The translations under genes were made by a program, and so were the position numbers. Positions 8,820 to 54,800 of a DNA stretch of 64,000 bases are shown here, piece after piece. The notes under the pieces were generated by a model. The model made no database searches, was not told the DNA's origin, and worked only from the letters and a program-made list of their open reading frames with translations. Source of the stretch: Mobula hypostoma (Eukaryota); NCBI RefSeq assembly GCF_963921235.1, contig NC_086097.1, positions 65,970,001-66,034,000 on the forward strand. Reading direction: 5' to 3'. Position 1 is the first letter of the stretch; each line of letters starts with the position of its first letter.

Positions 8820-8914
8820 GCCCAACTAGTATCAATGCAGAAAGAAAGAGATATTGCATTTCAGCAATGTAAGAAACAAGATGAAGAAATTCAGACACTT
8901 AGGCTTTATTACAG
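8820..8914 (+). CDS. MIPOL1: MIPOL1 internal coding exon (95 nt, phase 0 to 2): AQLVSMQKERDIAFQQCKKQDEEIQTLRLYY(S)
   Basis: Acceptor tttgcAG at 8818-8819, donor AG|GTAAGC at 8915, open coiled-coil frame. The peptide matches the recalled vertebrate MIPOL1 segment EEIQTLRVYYS and joins the 52745 exon in frame. Confidence 0.9.
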
Positions 8915-9798: not shown

Positions 9799-9937
9799 CA
9801 GTCCTGGCAAGGGGTTTCAACCTGAAACATCAATTATATACTCAACTCCATAGATGCTGCCCATCTTGCTAAGTTCCTCCAGCATTTTATGTATGTTGCT
9901 CAAGGTTTCCAGCATCTGCAGAATCTCTTACGTTTTG
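9799..9937 (+). mobile_element. Old Penelope terminal-repeat fragment with a degenerate hammerhead
   Basis: gtcctggcaagggg...cctgaaacat...agatgctgcc...ccagcatctgcaga is homologous to 33445-33583. Confidence 0.7.
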
Positions 9938-31428: not shown

Positions 31429-32312
31429 AGCAAAGGTGAAATAAACAGTTATTCATGTAGCAACTAATAAGCAGTCATTTTACTGACTCTAAATATTCCT
31501 GAGACTGGAGACTGGAATGGAACCATTTTTGCGATCCATCTTGCAGAGTAATTCTGCGCTTCGCTGGGGACCATAGTGAAGGTTTAAAATCTTTTTTGTA
31601 GAATTATGACATGATATTTTTGAACTTAGCACATTCCCTCATAGTATCTGGTGAGAAATCTTCAACGATTCTAATCTTTTTTCCATTAAAGTCAATCATA
31701 CCTTTCTGACGAGATTCACGAATTATATGATCCTTTGTTTGAAACTCATGAAAAGTAATTAGCACTGAATGAGGTTTGCTTGTAAACATATTGTTTGCAG
31801 GTGTCAATTTTAAAATATCAGGAAATAGCTGAACCAGAAGGTTTGCAAAAAATTCCATAGGACAATCACCTTCAGTTAACTCTTCAAGACCAAGAATTCG
31901 TATGTTATTCCTTCTACTTCTGTTTTCTAAATCAATAATCTTCTGTCTTAGTTCATCATTAACCTTGGATTGTTTTCCAAAACGGTTTTGCAGGTCATCC
32001 ATTTTCTCATCCAGAATCGACAGGATTTCTTCATTCTCTTTTATCCATTTATCGTGCTCAGTTAGAGTTTCTTGAATAGAATCCAGTTTTGTGCTTAATT
32101 TCGAAGCCAAGTTGTTGAAACTCTTCAGAGAATTCATTGCTGAATCACTGAAATTCCTCGGAGGATTCTTTTCTGAATCGCTGCAATTCCTCGGACACTT
32201 TCTTTCTGTGGTTTTGCATCAATTCAACAATAGAATACAAAGAGGTAGAAGAATCTCACATCAAATTTGCTGGTGAACGCAGCAGGCCAGGCAGCATCTC
32301 CAGGAAGAGGTA

Positions 32313-32354
32313 CAGTCAACGTTTCGGGCCGAGACCCTTCATCAGGACTAACTG
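32313..32354 (-). ncRNA. Minimal type I hammerhead ribozyme motif (Penelope)
   Basis: Minus strand reads AGTC-CTGATGA-A-GGGTCTCGGCCC-GAAAC-GTT-GACT. Confidence 0.75.
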
Positions 32355-33444
32355 AAAGAAGAGCTAGTAAGAGATTTGAAAGTGGAAGGGGGCAGCACTG
32401 GACGCAGTATATCACCCCAGCCGACTCACAGATGAAGTGTCGCCTCGCCTGGAAGGACTGTCTCAAACACATCTCCCCCATTTCATGCACATCTGCTCTC
32501 ACTCCATCCTCCCGCCACCCCACTAGGAATAGTGTTCCCCTTGTCCTCACCTATCTCCCCACCAGCCTCCGGGTCCAACATATTATTCTCCGTAACTTCC
32601 GCCACCTCCAACGGGATCCCACCACTAAGTACATCTTTCCCTCCCCCCCCCCCCGCTTTTGGCAGGGATCACTCCCTATGCGACTCCCTTGTCCATTCGT
32701 CCCCCCCCATCCCTCCCCACCGATCTCCCTCCTGGAACTTATCCTTGTAAGCGGAACAAGTGCGACACGTGCACTTACACTTCCTCCCTTACCACTATTC
32801 AGGGCCCCAGACAGTCCTTCCAGGTGAGGCGACACTTCACCTGTGAGTTGGCTGGGGTGATGTACTGCGTCCGGTGCTCCCGATGTGGCCTTCTATATAT
32901 TGGCGAGACCCAACGCAGACTGGGAGACCGTTTTGCTGAACACCTACGCTCTGTCCGCCAGAGAAAGCAGGATCTCCCAGTGGCCACACATTTTAATTCC
33001 ACATCCCATTCCCATTCTGACATGACTATCCACGGCCTCCTCTACTGTAAAGATGAAGCCACACTCAGGTTGGAGGAACGACACCTTATATTCCGTCTGG
33101 GTACCCTGCAACCTGATGGCGTGAACATTGACTTCTCAAACTTACGCTAATGCCCCACCTCCCCCTCGTACCCCATCCTTTATTTATTTTTATACACACG
33201 TTCTTTCTCTCTCTCTCCTTTTTCTCCCTCTGTCCCTCTCACTATACCCCTTGCCCATCCTCTGAGTTTTCCCCCCCTTCCCCTTTTCTTTCTCCCTGGG
33301 CCTCCTGTCCCATGATCCTCTCGTATCCCTTTTGCCAATCAACTGTCCAGCTCTTGGCTCCATCCCTCCCCCTCCTGTCTTCTCCTATGTTTTTGGATCT
33401 CCCCCTCCCCCTCCCACTTTCAAATCTCTTACTAGCTCTTCTTT

Positions 33445-33486
33445 CAGTTACTCCTGACGAAGGGTCTTGGCCCGAAACGTCGACTG
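33445..33486 (+). ncRNA. Minimal type I hammerhead ribozyme motif
   Basis: CTGACGA-A-GGGTCTTGGCCC-GAAAC-GTC-GACTG, with one stem I mismatch. Confidence 0.7.
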
Positions 33487-34917
33487 TACCTCTTCCTAGA
33501 GATGCTGCCTGGCCTGCTGCGTTCACCAGCAACTTTGATGTGTGTTGCTTGAATTTCCAGCATCTGCAGAATTCCTTGTGTTTGAGGTAGAAGAATCTTC
33601 TTCTTTTTTACCTTTAGCAGTTCTTGTTGTCATAGTGCCAGATGAGGTTGGAAAGTAGAAAAAGTAAAGTAAACTAGGAGCGGCTGTAAAATGCTGTTAT
33701 TCCATCCACCACCAACAGGAAGTCTCCACTGGTATTTAATTGAATTCATTCTTCCCTCTACCAGTAAATGTTCCCCTTGCCACTGGCTCCAACACAAGCC
33801 CAAAGCATGATCTGTGCTTAACAGTTGGAGAGGGGTTATTTTCATGAAACTCTGCACCCTTTTTTTTCCAAACATACCATTGCTCATTGCGGCCAAGAAG
33901 TTCTATTTTAACTTCATCAGTCCACGGGACTTGTTTCCAAAATGCATCAGGCTTGTTTAGATGTTCCTTTGAACCTTTTGAATAGAACTTTTTGGCCACA
34001 ATGAGCAAAGGTATGTTTGGAGAGAAAAGGGTGCAGAATTTCATGAAAAGAACACCTCTCCAACTATAAAGCACAGGAGTGGATTGATCATGCTTTGGGC
34101 TTGTGTTGCAGCCAGTGGCATGGGGACCATGTACTGGTAGATGGAAGAATGAAGTCAATTAACTACCAGCAAATTCGGGAAGCAAACATCACACCATCTG
34201 TAAAAAAGCCAAAGATGAAAAGAGGATGACTTCTACAACAGGATAATGAACCTAAACACACCTCAAAATCCACAATGGACTACCTCAAGAGGCGCAAGCT
34301 GAAGGTTTTGCCATGGCCCTCACAGTCTCCCGACCTAAACATCATCGAGAATCTGTGGATAGACCTCAAAAGAGCAGTGCATGTAAGACGGGCCAAGAAT
34401 CTCACAGAACTAGAAGCCTTTTGCAAGGAAGAATGCGCGAAAATCCCCCAAACAAGAATTGAAAGACTCTTAGCTGGCTACAAAAGGCATTTGCAAGCTG
34501 TGATACTTCCCAAAGGGGGTGTTACTAAGTACTGCCATGCAGGGTGCCCAAACTTTTGCTTCTGGCCCTTTTCCTTATTTGTTATTTTGAAACTGTAAAA
34601 GATGGAAATAAAGAAGTTTTCTTGCTTAAAATATTAAAGAAATGTGTCATCTTTAGCTTTATGCCTTTTGGAAATCAGTTCATCTTTTACTCACTTAGCT
34701 ATTCACAGTAACAGAAATTTTGACCAGGGGTGCCCAAACTTCTTCATGCCACTGTATGTTCAATGGTGGGGATGGTTTAACCGTGATGGACTCAGCTGTA
34801 TCCACTACTTTTTGTAGGTTTTTCCAGTCAAGAGCATTGGTGTTTCCATACTAAGATGTGATGCAAACATTCAGTATAGTCCCCACTGCGCATCTATAGA
34901 ATTCTGTTAAAGTTTTA

Positions 34918-35859
34918 GGCTACGTCCACACTAGACCGGATAAATCCGTAACCAAAGCTTTTTCTTTTCATTTTGACCCTCTGTCCACACTGAAATGGCA
35001 TTTTCCTCCCCCGAAAATGAAGATTTTCTAAAACGCCCTCCAGAGTGTGTAAATTTGAAACGCCGATTATGCAGAGCAGTGTGGATGGGGTAAACGGATA
35101 TTTTTAAAAACGCTGTCATGACGTGCCGGAACAGGACACTGACGAAGGGTCTCGGCCCGAAACGTCGACTGTACCTCTTCCCAGAGATGCTGCGTGGCCT
35201 GCTGCGTTCACCAGCAACTTTTATGTGTGTTGCTTGAAACTCCAGCATCTGCAGATTACCTCATGTTTGCGTTTTTAAATACTTTGACCCATAGTTTACT
35301 GAATAAGTAAGTATACAGTACTCACTTTGTCCCGTTTTCTGTCCTTGCTTGTCTGAAGGTGGTTTACCTATTTATGCAAAAGTACTTCTCTGACAATAGA
35401 TGTGTAACAGCCTAATGTAACTTTGTATGGAAATACAAGATAACGCTGATGCTGACATGTTTTATACATTTAACAAGGTGCTTTATTTATGCAACAGAGT
35501 TAGTCACTTTTTCAATGTTCGTCGTCAGCCGGGTCATACTGTTCATGAACTACCTGTCGGTTGCCTCCATACGCTCCAGTATTTGTTTTTTTTTTCAGTT
35601 TTAAGTCCTCCTGCACAAGAGCCAACAGCAATTCCTTTTAAGTTTCCCTAGTCTGTAACTGCTCAAACATGTACCAAGTATACCGTTTCCTCTTCGCTTG
35701 TTTTCTGTGTGTCCTGCGCATGCTCAGTAGGAGGAAATTCACCCAAATAACCGTTCTAATGTGGACGAAGATATTTTTTAAATCGCCTGGTGTGGACGCC
35801 TATCGTTTTGGCATGAAACCAGTGTTTTCAAAATTATCCGGTCTAGTGTGGACGTAGCC
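34918..35859. mobile_element. PIF/Harbinger-type MITE
   Basis: Perfect 26-bp TIR GGCTACGTCCACACTAGACCGGATAA at 34918-34943 and 35834-35859. TTA TSD at 34915-34917 and 35860-35862. No coding capacity. Confidence 0.9.
35139..35272 (+). mobile_element. Penelope terminal fragment starting at the hammerhead core, inside the MITE
   Basis: CTGACGAAGGGTCTCGGCCCGAAACGTCGACTG...ccagcatctgcaga...tgtttgc. Confidence 0.85.
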
Positions 35860-45840: not shown

Positions 45841-45913
45841 GCTAAAACCTCTAGTGGTAGGTAGATTTACATGAATTTGATGATACTCATCAACTTAATG
45901 CCAGCACAAAGAT

Positions 45914-48768
45914 GCAAACAACAGGAATTCTGCAGATGCTGGAAATTCAAGCAACACACATCAAAGTTGCTGGTGAACGCAGCAGGCCAGGTAGCATCTC
46001 TAGGAAGAGGTACAGTCGACATTTCAGGCCGAGACCCTTTGTCAGGACTAACTGAAAGAAGAGCTAGTAAGAGATTTGAAAGTGGGAGGGGGAGGGGGAG
46101 ATCCAAAATGATAGGAGAAGACAGGAGGGGGAGGGATGGAGCCAAGAGCTGGACAGGTGATTGGCAAAGGGGATATGAGAGGATCATGGGACAGGAGGCC
46201 CGGGAGAAAGACAAGTGGGGGGGAACCTAGAGGGGGCAAGGGGTATAGTCAGAGGGACAGAGGGAGAAAAAGGAGAGTGAGAGAAAGAATGTGTGTGTAA
46301 AAATAAATAATGGATGGGGTACGAGGGGGAGGTGGGGCATTAGCGGAAGTTAGAGAAGTCAATGTTCATGCCATCAGGTTGGAGGCTACCCAGACAGAAT
46401 ACAAAGTGTTGTTCCTCCAACAAAGAAGGCATCTCTTCTGCCTGCTCTGGATCTCTTTATTGCTAACTGCCGACAGGACATCAACCGTCTCGACTTCACC
46501 GCACCTTGTTCCCATTCCAACTTCACTCCTTCGGAACGCTCTGCTCTCCACTCCCTCCGCACTAATCCTAACCTTACTATTAAACCCGCCGATAAGGAGG
46601 GTGCTGTTGTAGTCTGGCGTACTGACCTCTACCTTGCCGAGGCACAGCGACAACTCGCGGATACCTCCTCTTATTTACCCCTCGATCGTGACCCCACTTA
46701 GGAGCACCAGGTCATTGACTCCCACACCATCACCAACTTTATCCGCTCGGGGGATCTCCCATCCACTGCTACCAACCTTATAGTTCCCACACCTCGTACT
46801 TCCCCTTTCTACCTCCTACCCAAGATCCACAAACCTGCCTGACCGGGCAGACCTATTGTCTCAGCTTGCTCCTGCCCCACCGAACTCGTTTCTGCATACC
46901 TCGACATGGTTTTATCCTCCCTTGTTCAATCCCTTCCTACCTATGTTCATGACACTTCTCACGCTCTTAAACTTTTCGATGATTTTAAGTTCCCTGGCCC
47001 CTACCACTTTATTTTCACCATGGATGTCCAGTCCCTATATACTTCCATCCCCCATCAGGAAGGTCTCAAAGCTCTCCGCTTCTTTTTGGATTCCAGACCT
47101 AATCAGTTCCCCTCTACCACCACTCTGCTCCGTCTAGTGGAATTAGTCCTTACTCTTAATAATTTCTCCTTTGGCTCCTCCCACTTCCTCCAAACTAAAG
47201 GTGTAGCTATGGGCACCCGTGTGGGTCCCAGCTATGCCTGCCTTTTTGTTGGCTTTGTGGAACAATCTATGTTCCGTACCTATTCTGGTATCTGTCCCCC
47301 ACTTTTCCTTCGCTACATCGACGACTGCATTAGTGCTGCTTCCTGCACGCATGCTGAGCTCGTTGACTTTATTAACTTTGCCTCCAACCTTCACCCTGCC
47401 CTCAAGTTTACCTGGTCCATTTCCGACACCTCCCTCCCCTTTCTAGATCTTTCTGTCTCTATCTCTGGAGACAGCTTGTCCACTGATGTCTACTATAAGC
47501 CTACTGACTCTCACAGCTATCTGGACTATTCCTCTTCTCACCCTGTCTCTTGCAAAAATGCCATCCCCTTCTCGCAATTCCTCCGTCTCCGCTGCATCTG
47601 CTCTCAGGATGAGGCTTTTCATTCCAGGATGAGGGAGATGACCTTTCTTAAAGAAAGGGGCTTCCCTTCCTCCACCATCAACTCTGCTCTCAAATGCATC
47701 TCCCCCATTTCACGCACATCTGCTCTCACTCCATCTTCCCGCCACCCCACTAGGAATAGGGTTCCTCTGGTCCTCACCTACCACCCCACCAGCCTCCGGG
47801 TCCAACATATTATTCTCCGTAACTTCCACCACCTCCAACGGTATCCCACCACTAAGCACATCTTTCCCCCCCTCCCTCTCTCTGCTTTCTGCGGGGATCG
47901 CTCCCTACGCGACTCCCTTGTCCATTCGTCTCCCCCATCCCTCCCCACTGATCTCCCTCCTGGCACTTATCCTTGCAAGTGGAACAAGTGCTACACATGC
48001 ACTTAGACTTCCTCCCTTACCACCATTCAGGGCCCCAAACAGTCCTTCCAGGTGAGGGAACACTTCACCTGTGAGTCGGCTGGGGTGATATACTGCATCC
48101 GGTGTTCCCAATGTGGCCTTCTATACATTGGCGAGACCCGACGCAGACTGGGAGACCGCTTTGCTGAACACCTACGCTCTGTCTGCCAGAGAAAGCAGTA
48201 TCTCCCAGTGGCCACACATTTTAATTCCACATCCCATTCCCATTCTGACATGTCTATCCACGGCCTCCTCTACTGTAAAGATGAAGCCACACTCAGGTTG
48301 GAGGAACAACACCTTATATTCTGTCTGGGTAGCCTCCAACCTGATGGCATGAACATTGACTTCTCCAACTTCCGCTAATACCCCACCTCCCCCTCGTACC
48401 CCATCCGTTATTTATTTTTACACACACATTCTTTCTCTCACTCTCCTTTTTCTCCCTCTGTCCCTCTGACTATACCCCTTGCCTATCCTCTAGGTTCCCA
48501 TCCTCCTTGTCTTTCTCTCCGGGCATCCTGTCCCATGATCCTCTCATATCCCCTTTGCCAATCATCTGTCCAGCTCTTGGCTCCATCCCTCCCCCTCCTG
48601 TCTTCTCCTATCATCTTGAATCTCCCCTTCCCCCTCCAATTTTCAAATCTCTTACTAACTCTTCCTTCAATTAGTCCTGACGAAGGGTCTCGGCCTGAAA
48701 TGTCGACTGTACCTCTTCCTAGAGATGCTGCCTGGCCTGCTGTGTTCACCAGCAACTTTGATGTGTGT
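45914..48768 (+). mobile_element. Penelope-like element: RT + GIY-YIG, with a ~500-bp inverted copy of its own 3' end at the 5' side
   Basis: TSD (TG)CCAGCACAAAGAT at 45899-45913 and 48769-48783. RT motifs TMDVQSLYTSIP, GVAMG, LRYIDD and PFLD; GIY-YIG motif GVIYCIRC..CGLLYIGET. A few stops. Confidence 0.93.
48668..48709 (+). ncRNA. Hammerhead motif, partly CpG-decayed
   Basis: AGTC-CTGACGA-A-GGGTCTCGGCCT-GAAAT-GTC-GACT. Confidence 0.55.
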
Positions 48769-50707
48769 TGCCAGCACAAAGATAGTGGCTATATGTATTG
48801 TTGGCCAGTGGAACAGCTGTATATTTAGTTCTCAGGAGGTTTTCGGATGTGTAGCTAATTCTTTGTGTTCTTTGCCAGATAGCTACTTCCAGGTCCACAC
48901 AGTATGATTACTAGTTTTATCGACGGTACAGATAATCAGTCTCTTCTGACTTTTGATCACCCTGTCATTCTTGCTTTTATCCAATTGTAAAATAATAAAA
49001 CAATTTGACTGGGGTACTTTAAATATATAACACAGTAGCTGTGTTCGTGAAGTTTAAATTTGTTAACATTTTGAGAGTCTAATTTGAGAAAAAGCACAAT
49101 TATTACTTGTTTTCTTCCAGGAAAGTAATTTTTTTTTGTACTGTGCTAAAAAGTTTAGTAGCCACCTTGATACATTGATGTTCTGGAGATCAGTTTGTGT
49201 TCCGCTGGAAGCATGGAATGAGCCTGAGACATAAGAGCAGGGAGCTGAAGTGAACTTGCCACCCATTGGCAATGTGTGTTTGTGGTAGAGTTCGGCTGAA
49301 GGTCAGACTACAGAGAGTACTCATATTTGTAGTTCTCCGTGTGAATCATCACTTTTGCACATTCCTGAGCAGGAATTCTCAAATTTGCTACCCATTATGT
49401 GTACCCACTAGGTGGAACCAGGCCGTATTCTAAGACTTGGAAATGATTGTTGTACATCCTATTATTTGGCAGTCTGCAAAATTGTAAAATTGGAAATCAT
49501 TATGCATGGACATTGATTAAAATGTGATCCTTTGAATAAAATCCAAAAAAGAACCTCAATTCTGCACCAGTGAAAATTCTAGTTTAATACAGCCTTTCTC
49601 TAATTTCACCCTTCCTCATTAGAAACTAGATAATTACTTAATTTGTTAATGTCAGAGCACATTCTTGCAGCAGCTAGAAGTCTGTTCCCATCGCAATTAT
49701 ATTGACATTATGACCAGGTAAGAAAATTTAGACTAAAAGCATTTTTGGTGTTCTGATTGAGTTTTTTGTTATTTTCTTTTCTGTAGCTCTCTAGCAATTC
49801 TGAATACACTTTTATTAATTGCAAGTGTATAGCAGTTCACATTCTACATAAATGTTGGGAAACTGCAAGAATATCTAATAATCACCATCTCCCTCTCTTC
49901 CCCCACCCCAAGAGTATTAAAATGAAGCTCAAAACATACAATAATAAAAAAGCACTCTGATTAGGTTTAAATTCAGGCACTAACGAGCTCTGCTCTTATT
50001 TTAAAACTAGTAAAGTCTGGTTATAATTCTTTGTAATGAGCAAAAGTACAATAAAGTCTTATCAATTCATGAAACTATTCTAAACATGACAAAACCTAAC
50101 CTTTCTCAGAAGAAAGTCTTGGAGGAACCTCTTTTGTATCCTTCTGTTGTTTTTGCCTATGTCCTGAAAAATGCTGATCTGTGAATTACTCTCAGTCTCC
50201 CTGCCCTTCACCCCATCCAGGTGAAATCTTTGTTCATGAATGTAAGTATGTGCAAGATTCTCTTTATATCTATTTAGTGTTTTAACTTGTACTTATCTCA
50301 TAACTGGCTCATCAGGAAGTTTAACAAGTGGCTAAGTGATCCAATAGATTATAAACACACTCCTCACCAGAACTGGCCAGTTCTGTTGAAAGCTTATCAA
50401 TCTGCTACATTAATTCACTTTCTTTCTCATCACAGGTTATTTCCAGGATAGTCTTTTATTTTGGATTTCTAACAACTGCAGTTCCAGCATTGAATTTTAG
50501 TTGTCTCTAGCATTCAGCTTTCTCTATGTGCATGTCCAGATGGATTAGCTGTGAGTAACAAACTTCATTGCCCTCTCTGAACTGCCCCACAACCTTGGGA
50601 CATTCTAGTGGCATTCAATCTCTCTTGGTCTTCACCCTAAGCATTCTCTTTGGTTTTTCATTCAGTTCTCTGAAATTTAAAACATGCATCTTTTCTGAGT
50701 TCCCCTT

Positions 50708-50742: not shown

Positions 50743-51297
50743 ACAGTTTCTCACCTCAGATCATCCTGATACATGACTTTCAACAATATTTTCCATTTTC
50801 ATTTTAGCAATGAGAGTAGTATGAGCATCCATTAAATGTGGGCTACATTTTTAGAGTTATGTCTTTTGTCTTGCAAAATATCGAAACAAACAAACCCAGG
50901 AATAAAACAAGGTTTATTGCACGTCTCATGTGATCCTTATCTGAGGATTTAATGTTGTACAAACGACAAAAACTTAAATTTATTCAAAATACAAATTCTG
51001 CCTATGTAATAAAGAGGCTAATGGAGATGCATATGACATTTCAACCTGTATCCAAATGAGTATAACTTAGGTTATCTAAATTTCTCATTTAGTTATCTTT
51101 AAATTACTTTATGGCAAAATGAATAAGCAAAGTTCATAACTACCACCTTATCATGCTTCATGATATGTTTCATGTTCAGTTCTACCATAAGAAGCTTCAT
51201 TTAACCACAATTTATGTATATAGACTTCTGTACTCTTATATTAAGTGAAATATCTCAGTAGATATCTGATTAAATATATTTAACAAAGAAAAAAATA

Positions 51298-52714
51298 GAA
51301 CTCGTTGACTTTATTAACTTTGCCTCCAACTTTTACCCTGCCCTCAAGTTTACCTGGTCCATTTCCGACACCTCCCTCCCCTTTCTAGATCTTTCTGTCT
51401 CTGTCTCTGGAGACAGCTTATCCACTGATGTCTACTATAAGCCTACTGACTCTCACAGCTATCTGGACTATTCCTCTTCTCACCCTGTCTCTTGCAAAAA
51501 CGCCATCCCCTTCTCGCAATTCCTCCGTCTCCACCGCATCTGCTCTCAGGATGAGGCTTTTCATTCTAGGACGAGGGAGATGTCTTCATTTTTTAAAGAA
51601 AGGGGCTTCCCTTCCTCCACTATCAACTCTGCTCTTAAACGCATCTCCCCCATTTCACGTACATCTGCTCTCACTCCATCCTCCCACCACCCCACTAGGA
51701 ATAGGGTTCCCCTGGTCCTCACCTACCACCCCACCAGCCTCCGGGTCCAACATATTATTCTCCGTAACTTCCGCCACCTCCAACGGGATCCCACCACTAA
51801 GCACATCTTTCCCTCCCCCCCCCTGCATTCCGCAGGGATCGCTCCCTACACAACTCCCTTGTCCATTCGTCCCCCCCATCCCTCCCCACTGATCTCCCTC
51901 CTGGCACTTATCCGTGTAAGCGGAACAAGTGCTACACATGCCCTTACACTTCCTCCCTTACCACCATTCAGGGCCCCAAACAGTCCTTCCAGGTGAGGCA
52001 TCACTTCACCTGTGAGTCGACTGGGGTGATATACTGCGTCTGGTGCTCCCGATGTGGCCTTTTATATATTGGTGAGACCCGACGCAGACTGGGAGACCGC
52101 TTTGCTGAACATCTATGTTCTGTCCGCCAGAGAAAGCAGGATCTCCCAGTGGCCACACATTTTAATTCCACGTCCCAGTCCCATTCTGACATGTCTATCC
52201 ACGGCCTCCTCTACTGTAAAGATGAAGCCACACTCAGGTTGGAGGAACAACACCTTATATTCCGTCTGGGTAGCCTCCAACCTGATGGCATGAACATTGA
52301 CTTCTCTAACTTCCGCTAAGGCCCCACCTCCCCCTCATACCCCATCTGTTACTCATTTTTATGCACACATTCTTTCTCTCACTCTCCTTTTTCTCCCTCT
52401 GTCCCTCTGAATATACCTCTTGCCCATCCTCTGGGTCACCCCCCGCCCCGTCTTTCTTCCCGGACCTCCTGTCCCATGATCCTCTCGTATCCCCTTTTGC
52501 CTATCACCTGTCCAGTTCTCGGCTCTATCCCTCCCCCTCCTGTCTTCTCCTATCATTTTGCATCTCCCCCTCCCCCTCCAGCTTTCAAATCCCTTACTCA
52601 CTCTTCCTTCAGTTAGTCCTGACGAAGGGTCTCGGCCTGAAACGTCGACTGCACCTCTTCCTGTAGATGCTGCTTGGCCTGCTGCGTTCACCAGCAACTT
52701 TGATGTATGTTGCT
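51298..52714 (+). mobile_element. 5'-truncated Penelope-like element ending 30 nt before a MIPOL1 exon
   Basis: Highly similar to ~47357-48771; GIY-YIG ORF at 51993-52319. Confidence 0.92.
52610..52651 (+). ncRNA. Minimal type I hammerhead ribozyme motif with an intact core
   Basis: AGTC-CTGACGA-A-GGGTCTCGGCCT-GAAAC-GTC-GACT; predicted cleavage after C52646. Confidence 0.7.
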
Positions 52715-52744
52715 AACATTTTAAATATGTTCATGTTGTTTCAG

Positions 52745-52975
52745 CTTACACAAGTCATTATCTCAAGAGGCTACACTCACAGACCAATTAAACCTTACCC
52801 TAGGCACTTACGACAATGCTTTACGTGTCAGTAAAGACATGATATCAACCACACACCACCGAAATGAAGATCTTGCAAGCCAGTTACAATTAGCCATGAC
52901 TGAACACGCAGATATGGAAATGAAACTACAACAAGCATTGGGAGAGAAAAATGAATTAATTGAAAAAGTTCAGAA
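52745..52975 (+). CDS. MIPOL1: MIPOL1 coding exon, probably the penultimate one (231 nt, phase 2 to 2): (S)LHKSLSQEATLTDQLNLTLGTYDNALRVSKDMISTTHHRNEDLASQLQLAMTEHADMEMKLQQALGEKNELIEKVQ(K)
   Basis: Acceptor ttgtttcAG at 52743-52744, donor AA|GTGAGT at 52976, no stops. Matches recalled MIPOL1 SLHKSLSQE...NEELATQLQQA...EKVQK. Phase is compatible with the 8820 exon. Confidence 0.92.
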
Positions 52976-53119
52976 GTGAGTACTTTGACAATCTTTTTTT
53001 AAAGTTGGAAGTATACTTCTGTAATTCTTCAGCTCTCCTTCTGACCATGATCAACACAGGTTAAAAGTAAAATACTGTTATTTGCATACAATATATTTTC
53101 TAAATGTCTTCAAATTACT

Positions 53120-54800
53120 TAAAGAACTTAAATGGGGAACCAGGGAGGCTAAAAAGTTCCATGAAATATGTTTGGCAAGTAGGGTTAAAAAGAATCCCAA
53201 GGCACTTCATCCATAACATTAAAAAGGGGAGTAGATAGGGAAAGAGTAGAACCAATGAGGACTAAAGAGGGAATTTATGTTTGGAGCCAGAGGAACTAGG
53301 CAAGAGGCAAACTAAGTATGTTGCATCAGTGTTTACCAAGAAGGACATAGTGAGAGCTGGAAGGGCTATGCTGATATTCTAGGGCACAATGATAACAAAA
53401 AGAGGTATTGGGTCTTTTAGAGAGCGTTAAGGTGGATGTCCTCAGGGCCTGATGGGCTCTTTGCAGGTTATTGAGAGAGACAACAGAGGAAATACCCAAT
53501 GTTGTTCCTTTGTTTAAGAAGGACAATATGGACAGACCAGGAAATTATAGGCCAGTGTGATATAGGTAGAGAAATTATTGGAGAAGATTCTTGGGTGTAG
53601 GACTTACTCACATCTAGAAAAGCATAGACTTATATGGGATAGTCAATATGCCTTTGTGCCAGGAAGGTCATGTCTTACAAATATGATTGATTTTTTTGAG
53701 AGGTGACAAGATGGTTGAGGAGGGTAGGGCTGTGGATATTGCATTGGTCAAAGTCCCTCATGATAAGCTGACAAGGGATCCTTAAAGACTTCATAGATTG
53801 CATTCAAAATTGGCCTGTTCTTAGAGGACAGAGGGTATTGGTAGATGGGTATTATGTTGACTCAAAGTCTGTGACCCCAAGGGTCAGTGCTAGGACGTCT
53901 GTTGTTTGTAATCTGTGTAAATAATTTGGATGAAAATGTAGGTCGGATAATTAGTAAGTTTGTAAATGGTATGAAAATTGGTGCGTTGTGGATAGTGAGG
54001 AACGTTATCAAAGAATGCCACAGGACATAGATCAAATGGAAATATGAGTGGGAAATGGCAGAATGAGTTTAGTTTGGACAAATGTGAAGCATGGCACATT
54101 TGGGAGATCAAATGAAAGATGGAAGTGTACAGTAAATGACTGATTCTTTCAGAAAAATTAATATACAAAGGGATCTTGGGGTGCAAATCCATAGATCCCT
54201 GAAAGTGGCTTCACAAGTAGAAAAGGTGTGAAGAAGGTGTAGGCCATATTTGCCTTCATAGGCCAGGTAATTAAACATAGAAAGTGGGAAGTTATGTTGC
54301 AGCATATAGATCTTTGGTGAGGCACCATTTGGACTGTAGTGTGCAGTTCTGGTTGTTGAATTGCAGAAAGGATGTGGAGGCTTTGGAGAGAGTGCAGAAA
54401 AGATTAGAGAACATTAGCTGTAAGAAGAGGTGGACAAGGTTAGACTGTTTCTCTGGAGCTTCGGAGGCTGAGGGTCAACCTGATTGAAGTGTATAAAATC
54501 ATACAAGGCATAGGGAGTTGTTTGTCTTCTTCTTAAAGTGAAAATGTCAAATACTGGAGGTCATAGATTCAAGACGAAAGGAGGAAAGTTTAAAAGAAAT
54601 TTACAAGGCAAGATTTTTTTTACATACAGGGGGTGCTAGTGGTGTGGACTGAGCTGCCAGGGCATGTGTTGTATGATAGCCAGTACATTAACAATATTTG
54701 AATGGAGGAATATGCAGGCAGCTACAATTAATTCAAATTGCCATTGTGGTCAGCACAGGTGTCATGAGCCTTCAGGCCTGTTTCTGAGCTGTTTTTCTGC
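53120..54800 (+). mobile_element. Old decayed CR1 ORF2
   Basis: ccaggaaattataggccagtg, LVRHHLDCSVQFW and a CR1 3' UTR remnant. Confidence 0.75.

Follow-up and report, generated by a model that had tools for sequence, protein, structure and literature searches.

What becomes of an exon when a retroelement carrying a self-cleaving ribozyme motif lands directly in front of its splice acceptor? This question is raised by a copy of a Penelope-like element in the MIPOL1 gene of Mobula hypostoma, which lies in the 64-kb stretch of DNA that was analysed as a whole (the window). According to the original prediction, the insertion had preserved or rebuilt the branch point of the downstream exon and its hammerhead ribozyme could alter the inclusion of this exon by self-cleavage, i.e., the locus would be a case of transposon-derived splicing control. 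We consider it likely that the insertion displaced the probable branch site of the intron and rebuilt a stronger predicted one at its own 3' end, with the hammerhead being an inactive passenger.

The insertion site in MIPOL1

The assignment of the exon to MIPOL1 was borne out by its translation, which is identical at 76 of 76 residues to RefSeq isoform X1 of Mobula hypostoma and shares 97% identity with the MIPOL1 proteins of Hypanus sabinus and Mobula birostris. It is the penultimate coding exon (the last one lies outside the window) and, as claimed, preserves the reading frame, with phase 2 on both sides. The preceding intron (8915-52744) spans 43.8 kb and ends in a tract with 11 pyrimidines among the 17 bases of 52725-52741.

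8820..8914, + strand: upstream exon of MIPOL1 (95 nt) with the donor of the intron, found by tblastn; a probable-RNA contig connects its final 30 nt with 52745
52715..52744, + strand: host intron end kept after the insertion, with a weak pyrimidine tract and the acceptor AG at 52743-52744; covered by contigs of runs X9 and X13 with no difference listed
52745..52975, + strand: penultimate coding exon of MIPOL1, a frame-preserving cassette of 231 nt

Directly upstream of this intron end lies the insertion, and its identity as a Penelope-like element is supported by a GIY-YIG endonuclease match above the Pfam cut-off and by a neighbouring copy (47356-48771; 92.5% identity across 1420 nt) that has both RVT_1 (E 1.5e-5, below the Pfam cut-off) and GIY-YIG domains.

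51298..52714, + strand: 5'-truncated copy of a Penelope-like element, sense to MIPOL1, with a tail-less 3' end and a duplication of 1-2 bp (A or TA)
51801..52319, + strand: GIY-YIG endonuclease frame of the element (PF01541, E 5.1e-5, 23.9 bits with a cut-off of 22.6)

The reverse transcriptase (RT)-side fragment of the acceptor-adjacent copy gave no Pfam match, and its GIY-YIG frame is not in frame with the upstream RT-side frame (51274-51996 in the list of open reading frames). Judged from the sequence, the copy appears to follow the order of RT and then GIY-YIG that is typical of Penelope-like elements. It also appears to carry the pseudo-LTR of this group, i.e., a hammerhead, an optional tail of 30-40 nt and, in some copies, inverted 5' partners; tailed ends, tail-less ends and two composites with inverted arms are all seen among the copies in the window.

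Seven hammerhead-bearing element ends are present in the window (five sense and two antisense). Six copies have readable 3' ends, of which three are tailed (ca. 35 nt), one stops ca. 8 nt earlier than the tail-less form and two stop at TGTTGC(T), namely the acceptor-adjacent copy and the one at 48.8k. With two of six readable copies stopping there, the end next to the acceptor is typical of the family. Its placement at 52714 was right, since TGTTGCT occupies 52708-52714 and the agreement with other window copies stops at this point, with T52714 assignable to either the element or the host (an ambiguity of 1 nt). This picture resembles the insertion of Poseidon-type Penelope elements described by Frangieh et al. 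2024 (PMC11167929), where two RT start sites give an optional tail of 30-40 bp and hence two preferred 3' ends ca. 35 nt apart, the target is AT-rich, and the hammerhead lies upstream of the ends. Unlike the insertions described there, the acceptor-adjacent copy has a duplication of only 1-2 bp, compared to 13 and 15 bp at two of its composite neighbours.

The first of these composites (45901-48783) is a single insertion made of an inverted tailed end (45951-46421, minus strand) and a long sense copy ending at 48771, flanked by the 13-bp duplication CCAGCACAAAGAT. The second one (32243-33597) joins a short inverted arm to a tailed sense copy and has the 15-bp duplication GAGGTAGAAGAATCT on both sides. 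A tiny element copy at 35139-35276 has its 5' end precisely where CTGACGA, the hammerhead core, begins, so that the 5' strand of helix I is gone. A small hairpin (TGCTG-CGTTCAC-CAGCA, 52680-52696) lies 18 nt before the tail-less end, is mostly retained in the window copies, and may by analogy be the counterpart of the stem-loop region where RT initiation has been described in the anole element.

Empty sites in two close relatives

Comparison with the empty site was possible because, among contigs of four runs (chosen from 24 listed) that were compared with the region 52688-53130, those of relatives C (run X9) and F (run X13) both lack the insertion and have the left flank joined to 52714/52715. 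Their alignments start at 52714 (C) and 52715 (F), and the 30 unaligned letters before the junction match the left flank of the window at ca. 51266-51297. A third DNA-like run (X10, organism D) yielded 0 contigs over this region and counts as evidence in neither direction. With 7 and 11 differing letters over ca. 416 bases, plus small indels, these relatives are close kin. Both being empty, the insertion postdates the split from them, barring a precise loss, and the duplication of 1-2 bp favours insertion over such a loss. Both relatives also have 17 extra bases at 53077-53078, which points to a 17-bp deletion in the downstream intron of the window lineage, and both lack one base near 52994.

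Displacement and rebuilding of a predicted branch point

Two predicted branch sites frame the element:

51278..51284, + strand: displaced ancestral branch-point candidate ATTTAAC (A 51283), a match to yUnAy; the loose ends of the X9 and X13 contigs match from 51266
52711..52717, + strand: hybrid predicted branch point TGCTAAC (A 52716, at -29), with TGC(T) from the element and (T)AAC from the host

In both empty alleles, ATTTAAC lies at -43, from where its TTTAAC was shifted 1.4 kb upstream by the insertion. GCTAAC does span the junction of element and host at 52712-52717, as the original prediction had it, with A52716 at -29. Around this adenosine, the empty alleles read AAATAAC (C) and AAGCAAC (F). 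Between preservation and rebuilding of the branch point, which had been left open, rebuilding is shown at the sequence level, where a weak site at -29 became TGCTAAC, and the use of A52716 is a prediction. Simple preservation was rejected because relative F lacks the T at -2 and relative C the pyrimidine at -3 of the motif. The lack of the -2 T in F also indicates that the -29 site was not the indispensable ancestral branch point.

TGCTAAC matches the TACTAAC consensus at six of seven positions and ranks best of the 14 adenosines scored from -60 to -9. In a crude calculation of pairing with the well-known U2 motif it reaches -4.5 kcal/mol, compared to +0.3, -0.6 and -0.1 kcal/mol for three ancestral candidates. 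Kralovicova et al. 2021 (PMC7969005) name UACUAAC as the preferred branch site. The motif is weaker or absent in the empty alleles, was finished by element bases and lies 19-37 nt from the acceptor, as expected of a transposon-derived branch point, and we infer that U2 uses A52716.

Transposons that introduce or remove branch points have been demonstrated experimentally (PMC7969005). A close parallel in the same source are MIR insertions in intron 4a of OGDH, which likewise place a retroelement between branch point and acceptor, put the old branch point out of range and supply a new candidate. The MIPOL1 event differs in being natural, in having a motif that is a hybrid at the junction and not internal to the element, and in its site being predicted.

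How unusual is this arrangement? We derived chance figures from the seven window copies, using trinucleotide frequencies of the window for the junction motif. An element end in ...GCT that meets random window sequence gives CTRAY in 6.7% and CTAAC in 1.6% of cases. At the density seen in the window (five sense cores per 64 kb) and ignoring selection, a sense core would be expected no more than 130 nt from ca. 1% of acceptors, and a tail-less sense end at a distance of 18-40 nt from 0.07% of them. A vertebrate genome has roughly 200,000 acceptors, so that these rates correspond to ca. 2,000 and ca. 140 cases, respectively, with a handful having a branch motif made at the junction. This outcome is probably enriched, as selection would tend to remove insertions after which no branch point remains. 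The configuration is uncommon but expected, and the junction motif would have arisen by chance when the usual tail-less ...TGTTGC(T) end met an AT-rich target, to survive as splicing kept working.

The strongest rival to this reading is a fully neutral insertion, in which the branch forms at a different adenosine (in the TTTAA of the host at -22/-21 or the element-supplied TTGAT at -42), or at several of them redundantly, and TGCTAAC is an unused coincidence. The zone free of AG from -52 to -2 indeed holds several candidates, a junction CTRAY is expected by chance in 6.7% of cases, and selection on the branch point may be weak for a frame-preserving cassette. Against this, TGCTAAC matches far better than any other candidate and sits inside the usual zone of 19-37 nt, and a UACUAAC placed at -28 competed most strongly in a minigene (PMC7969005). 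On balance, we regard neutrality of this kind as unlikely, if still worth keeping in mind, and favour a sequence of events in which a 5'-truncated Penelope-like copy landed 30 bases ahead of the MIPOL1 exon and pushed the likely ancestral branch site TTTAAC (-43) away by 1.4 kb. By contributing its terminal bases, it would have created a stronger predicted branch point at -29, which likely let the insertion be tolerated.

Use and skipping of the exon

One 291-nt contig of run X15 (same organism; its RNA status is a guess, none of the listed runs being on record as RNA) spans the exon with 0 differences and extends 30 nt into both the upstream and the next exon. The acceptor is used despite the insertion, as observed in this one probable-RNA contig. 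The overhangs of 30 letters are one short of the 31-letter bridge rule, and ends at this distance in both neighbours would fit a 31-mer graph at an include/skip bubble; unspliced reads could give the same. Run X15 has no contig over 52728-52741 or the downstream intron and is thus no proof against exonisation of the element or intron retention.

Among 151 MIPOL1 proteins, the exon is present in 119 by motif spacing and skipped in four (YYRLERLVD), while 28 lack the motif pair and include one that skips by eye. The resulting five skip isoforms, all of them predicted RefSeq models, come from Mobula hypostoma, Hypanus sabinus, Hemitrygon akajei, Narcine bancroftii and Cetorhinus maximus. With an exon identity to the window of 75% in the electric ray Narcine bancroftii and 70% in the shark Cetorhinus maximus, the latter two are far more distant than the empty-site relatives, and their skip models make it likely that skipping predates the element. 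As the original prediction implied, the exon is alternative, but this alternative use likely did not originate with the element. Skipping caused by the element was rejected for the same reason, and skipping is likely an old elasmobranch trait as judged from these models. If the insertion has any effect on skipping, the expected direction is more inclusion via a better branch point.

No skip models were seen in bony-vertebrate proteins that have the motif pair; the five models range from rays to the basking shark and possibly reflect a conserved elasmobranch isoform of MIPOL1 without 77 residues. Isoforms X3 and X4 of Mobula hypostoma MIPOL1 diverge upstream of the 8915-52744 intron and do not use the element. 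Among the matches listed in our literature search, no paper was by its title about the splicing of this MIPOL1 exon.

The hammerhead of the element

52614..52651, + strand: minimal type I hammerhead with core CTGACGA (52619-52625), bulged A and GAAACGTC; no helix III; helix I TAGTC/GACTG, helix II GGGT-CTCG-GCCT
48672..48709, + strand: closest hammerhead copy in sense orientation, 3,942 nt upstream within the same intron; palindrome decayed to AUGU

Read as RNA, the motif next to the acceptor consists of helix I (UAGUC/GACUG), CUGACGA, a bulged A, helix II (GGGU-CUCG-GCCU) and GAAACGUC, with a predicted cut after C52646. The distance of 98 nt to the exon proved accurate, with GAAACGTC ending at 52646 and the exon starting at 52745. 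The description of the core as intact holds for its 13 invariant nucleotides (CUGANGA / GAAA / UH), but helix III is absent, with only CG (2 nucleotides) between A15.1 and U16.1, and the closing pair of helix II is G-U instead of G-C. The sequence would thus qualify as a minimal type I hammerhead of the dimer type, with a helix I of 5 bp and a helix II of 4 bp that can form and a palindromic, unstable helix III (ACGU), yet it lacks the conserved G10.1-C11.1 pair of this type as well as the stable helix III of canonical hammerheads that are active as monomers. Rfam found no hammerhead in the window at the gathering score, nor around the motif at E values up to 10, where it gave two chance matches (E 2.5 and 8.2).

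Metazoan Penelope-like elements are known to carry minimal type I hammerheads in their pseudo-LTRs (Cervera and De la Pena 2014, PMC4209133). The same study reports no detectable cleavage for a single minimal motif and little activity for dimers and trimers, and describes G10.1-C11.1 as highly conserved, in contrast to the G10.1-U11.1 of the MIPOL1-adjacent copy; helix II has 7-8 bp in the Schistosoma families but 4 bp here. For an anole Penelope hammerhead, cleavage was seen only with the element protein and no RNA-seq reads ended at its site (PMC11167929). Among dimer elements of Xenopus, cleavage was found in one of nine, and these elements are depleted from introns (preprint 10.64898/2026.07.22.740005, July 2026).

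Across the seven window copies, the 10.1/11.1 pair is G-C in four and G-U in three (the acceptor-adjacent copy and two others), a CpG-type change that makes helix II less stable (-2.0 instead of -3.7 kcal/mol). Lunse et al. 2016 reportedly described cleavage by dimers of such hammerheads and may give faster dimer rates than PMC4209133. The acceptor-adjacent copy is among the least damaged of the seven, with all 13 invariant nucleotides, a helix I that has all its 5 bp and the palindrome ACGU. We found no sign of selection on this core, since private changes of the copy (33 of 975 non-CpG columns, 3.4%; 12 of 98 CpG columns, 12%) are similar to those of its neighbours, an intact 13-nt core is expected by chance with 58%, and five of the seven copies have one. 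The insertion with its hammerhead is also absent from both relatives covering the site.

In its context, the core is predicted to fold onto upstream element sequence, and helices I and II with a free core lie ca. 10 kcal/mol above the ensemble. The 48672..48709 copy would be the only plausible dimer partner in cis, and the modelled double hammerhead with it lies 19-28 kcal/mol above the free ensemble. These energies were calculated without a known-active control and with multiloops penalised, and weigh little as evidence.

Sense ribozyme motifs in introns of protein-coding genes have precedents in the HDV-like ribozyme of CPEB3 (PMC10919898) and in intronic hammerheads of amniotes (PMC6765202), which are single-copy, deeply conserved and self-sufficient. 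The CPEB3 ribozyme has a half-life of 2-3 min and lies 9.9 kb from the exon (PMC10919898). By contrast, the MIPOL1-adjacent hammerhead is one young and neutrally drifting copy of a very abundant repeat without the helix for activity as a monomer. Slow intronic ribozymes had no effect on splicing (Fong et al. 2009, as cited in PMC10919898). At 3.8 kb/min (rate from the same source), the polymerase reaches the acceptor ca. 1.5 s after the cut site, so that nearness gives the ribozyme less time, not more, and we infer that the hammerhead is too slow on pre-mRNA to matter.

Could the hammerhead still tune exon inclusion by cutting at 52646, whether in a dimer with its partner 3.9 kb upstream or with the help of Penelope protein? 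Its invariant nucleotides, helix I and palindrome are all retained, a dimer with the 48.7k copy is formally allowed by its geometry, protein-assisted cleavage is documented for the anole element (PMC11167929), and the intronic ribozyme of CPEB3 modulates its own mRNA (PMC10919898). The ends of the X15 contig 30 nt into both neighbour exons would look like a bubble of skipping and inclusion, and deep X15 contigs at the element end suggest that RNA or protein of the family could be available in trans: over 52688-52717, the summed word depth of these contigs is ca. 8,900 compared to 6.6 for the exon contig. The element family may thus be heavily transcribed, with contig depth being a poor measure of expression. 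An exact 29-nt pattern of the element had 0 matches in JGI metagenome contigs.

On the other side stand the missing helix III and the G-U closing pair, the energetic cost of the active dimer in a model that had no positive control, the low published cleavage rates (PMC4209133), a core without sign of selection, the annotation of skipping in lineages older than the insertion, and the short time until the polymerase is at the acceptor. Ribozyme control of this exon is therefore very improbable in our view. Both the proposed effect of self-cleavage on inclusion, which would depend on a dimer-type motif with a predicted sequestered core and no unusual conservation, and the broader idea of ribozyme-based splicing control, for an acceptor that is used in the carrier, found no support. 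A two-part switch, in which the strong branch point drives inclusion and the hammerhead 70 nt upstream cuts only with Penelope protein or a partner copy, is a similarly long shot. If true, it would couple the choice of MIPOL1 isoforms to transposon activity in devil rays, and the literature that we searched has no earlier case of a Penelope hammerhead controlling the splicing of its host.

Significance and a related insertion in the gene

With the rebuilt branch point as the preferred reading and the hammerhead likely a passenger, the locus is a tidy example of an already known kind of event. It is a clean natural one with the empty allele in hand, in which a retroelement would have displaced a branch point and rebuilt one at its junction, and it may be useful for teaching or as a test case for the survival of insertions next to acceptors. 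Its weight would be greater if the fixed ...TGTTGCT end and the preference for AT-rich targets create branch points at many ray acceptors, or if the element protein switches on cleavage of intronic copies. Our literature search, with subscription papers largely outside its coverage, returned no paper in which a hammerhead or end of a Penelope element governs splicing of the host, none on Penelope in a shark or ray, and none on a new branch point via retrotransposon insertion.

A second contact between MIPOL1 and this family lies near the other end of the intron, where 9800-9928 is an antisense, diverged (73%) piece of a Penelope element end. This piece is 72% like the alternative C-terminus found in isoform X4 of Mobula hypostoma MIPOL1, which suggests that the model of this isoform ends in an exonised antisense Penelope end located elsewhere in the gene.
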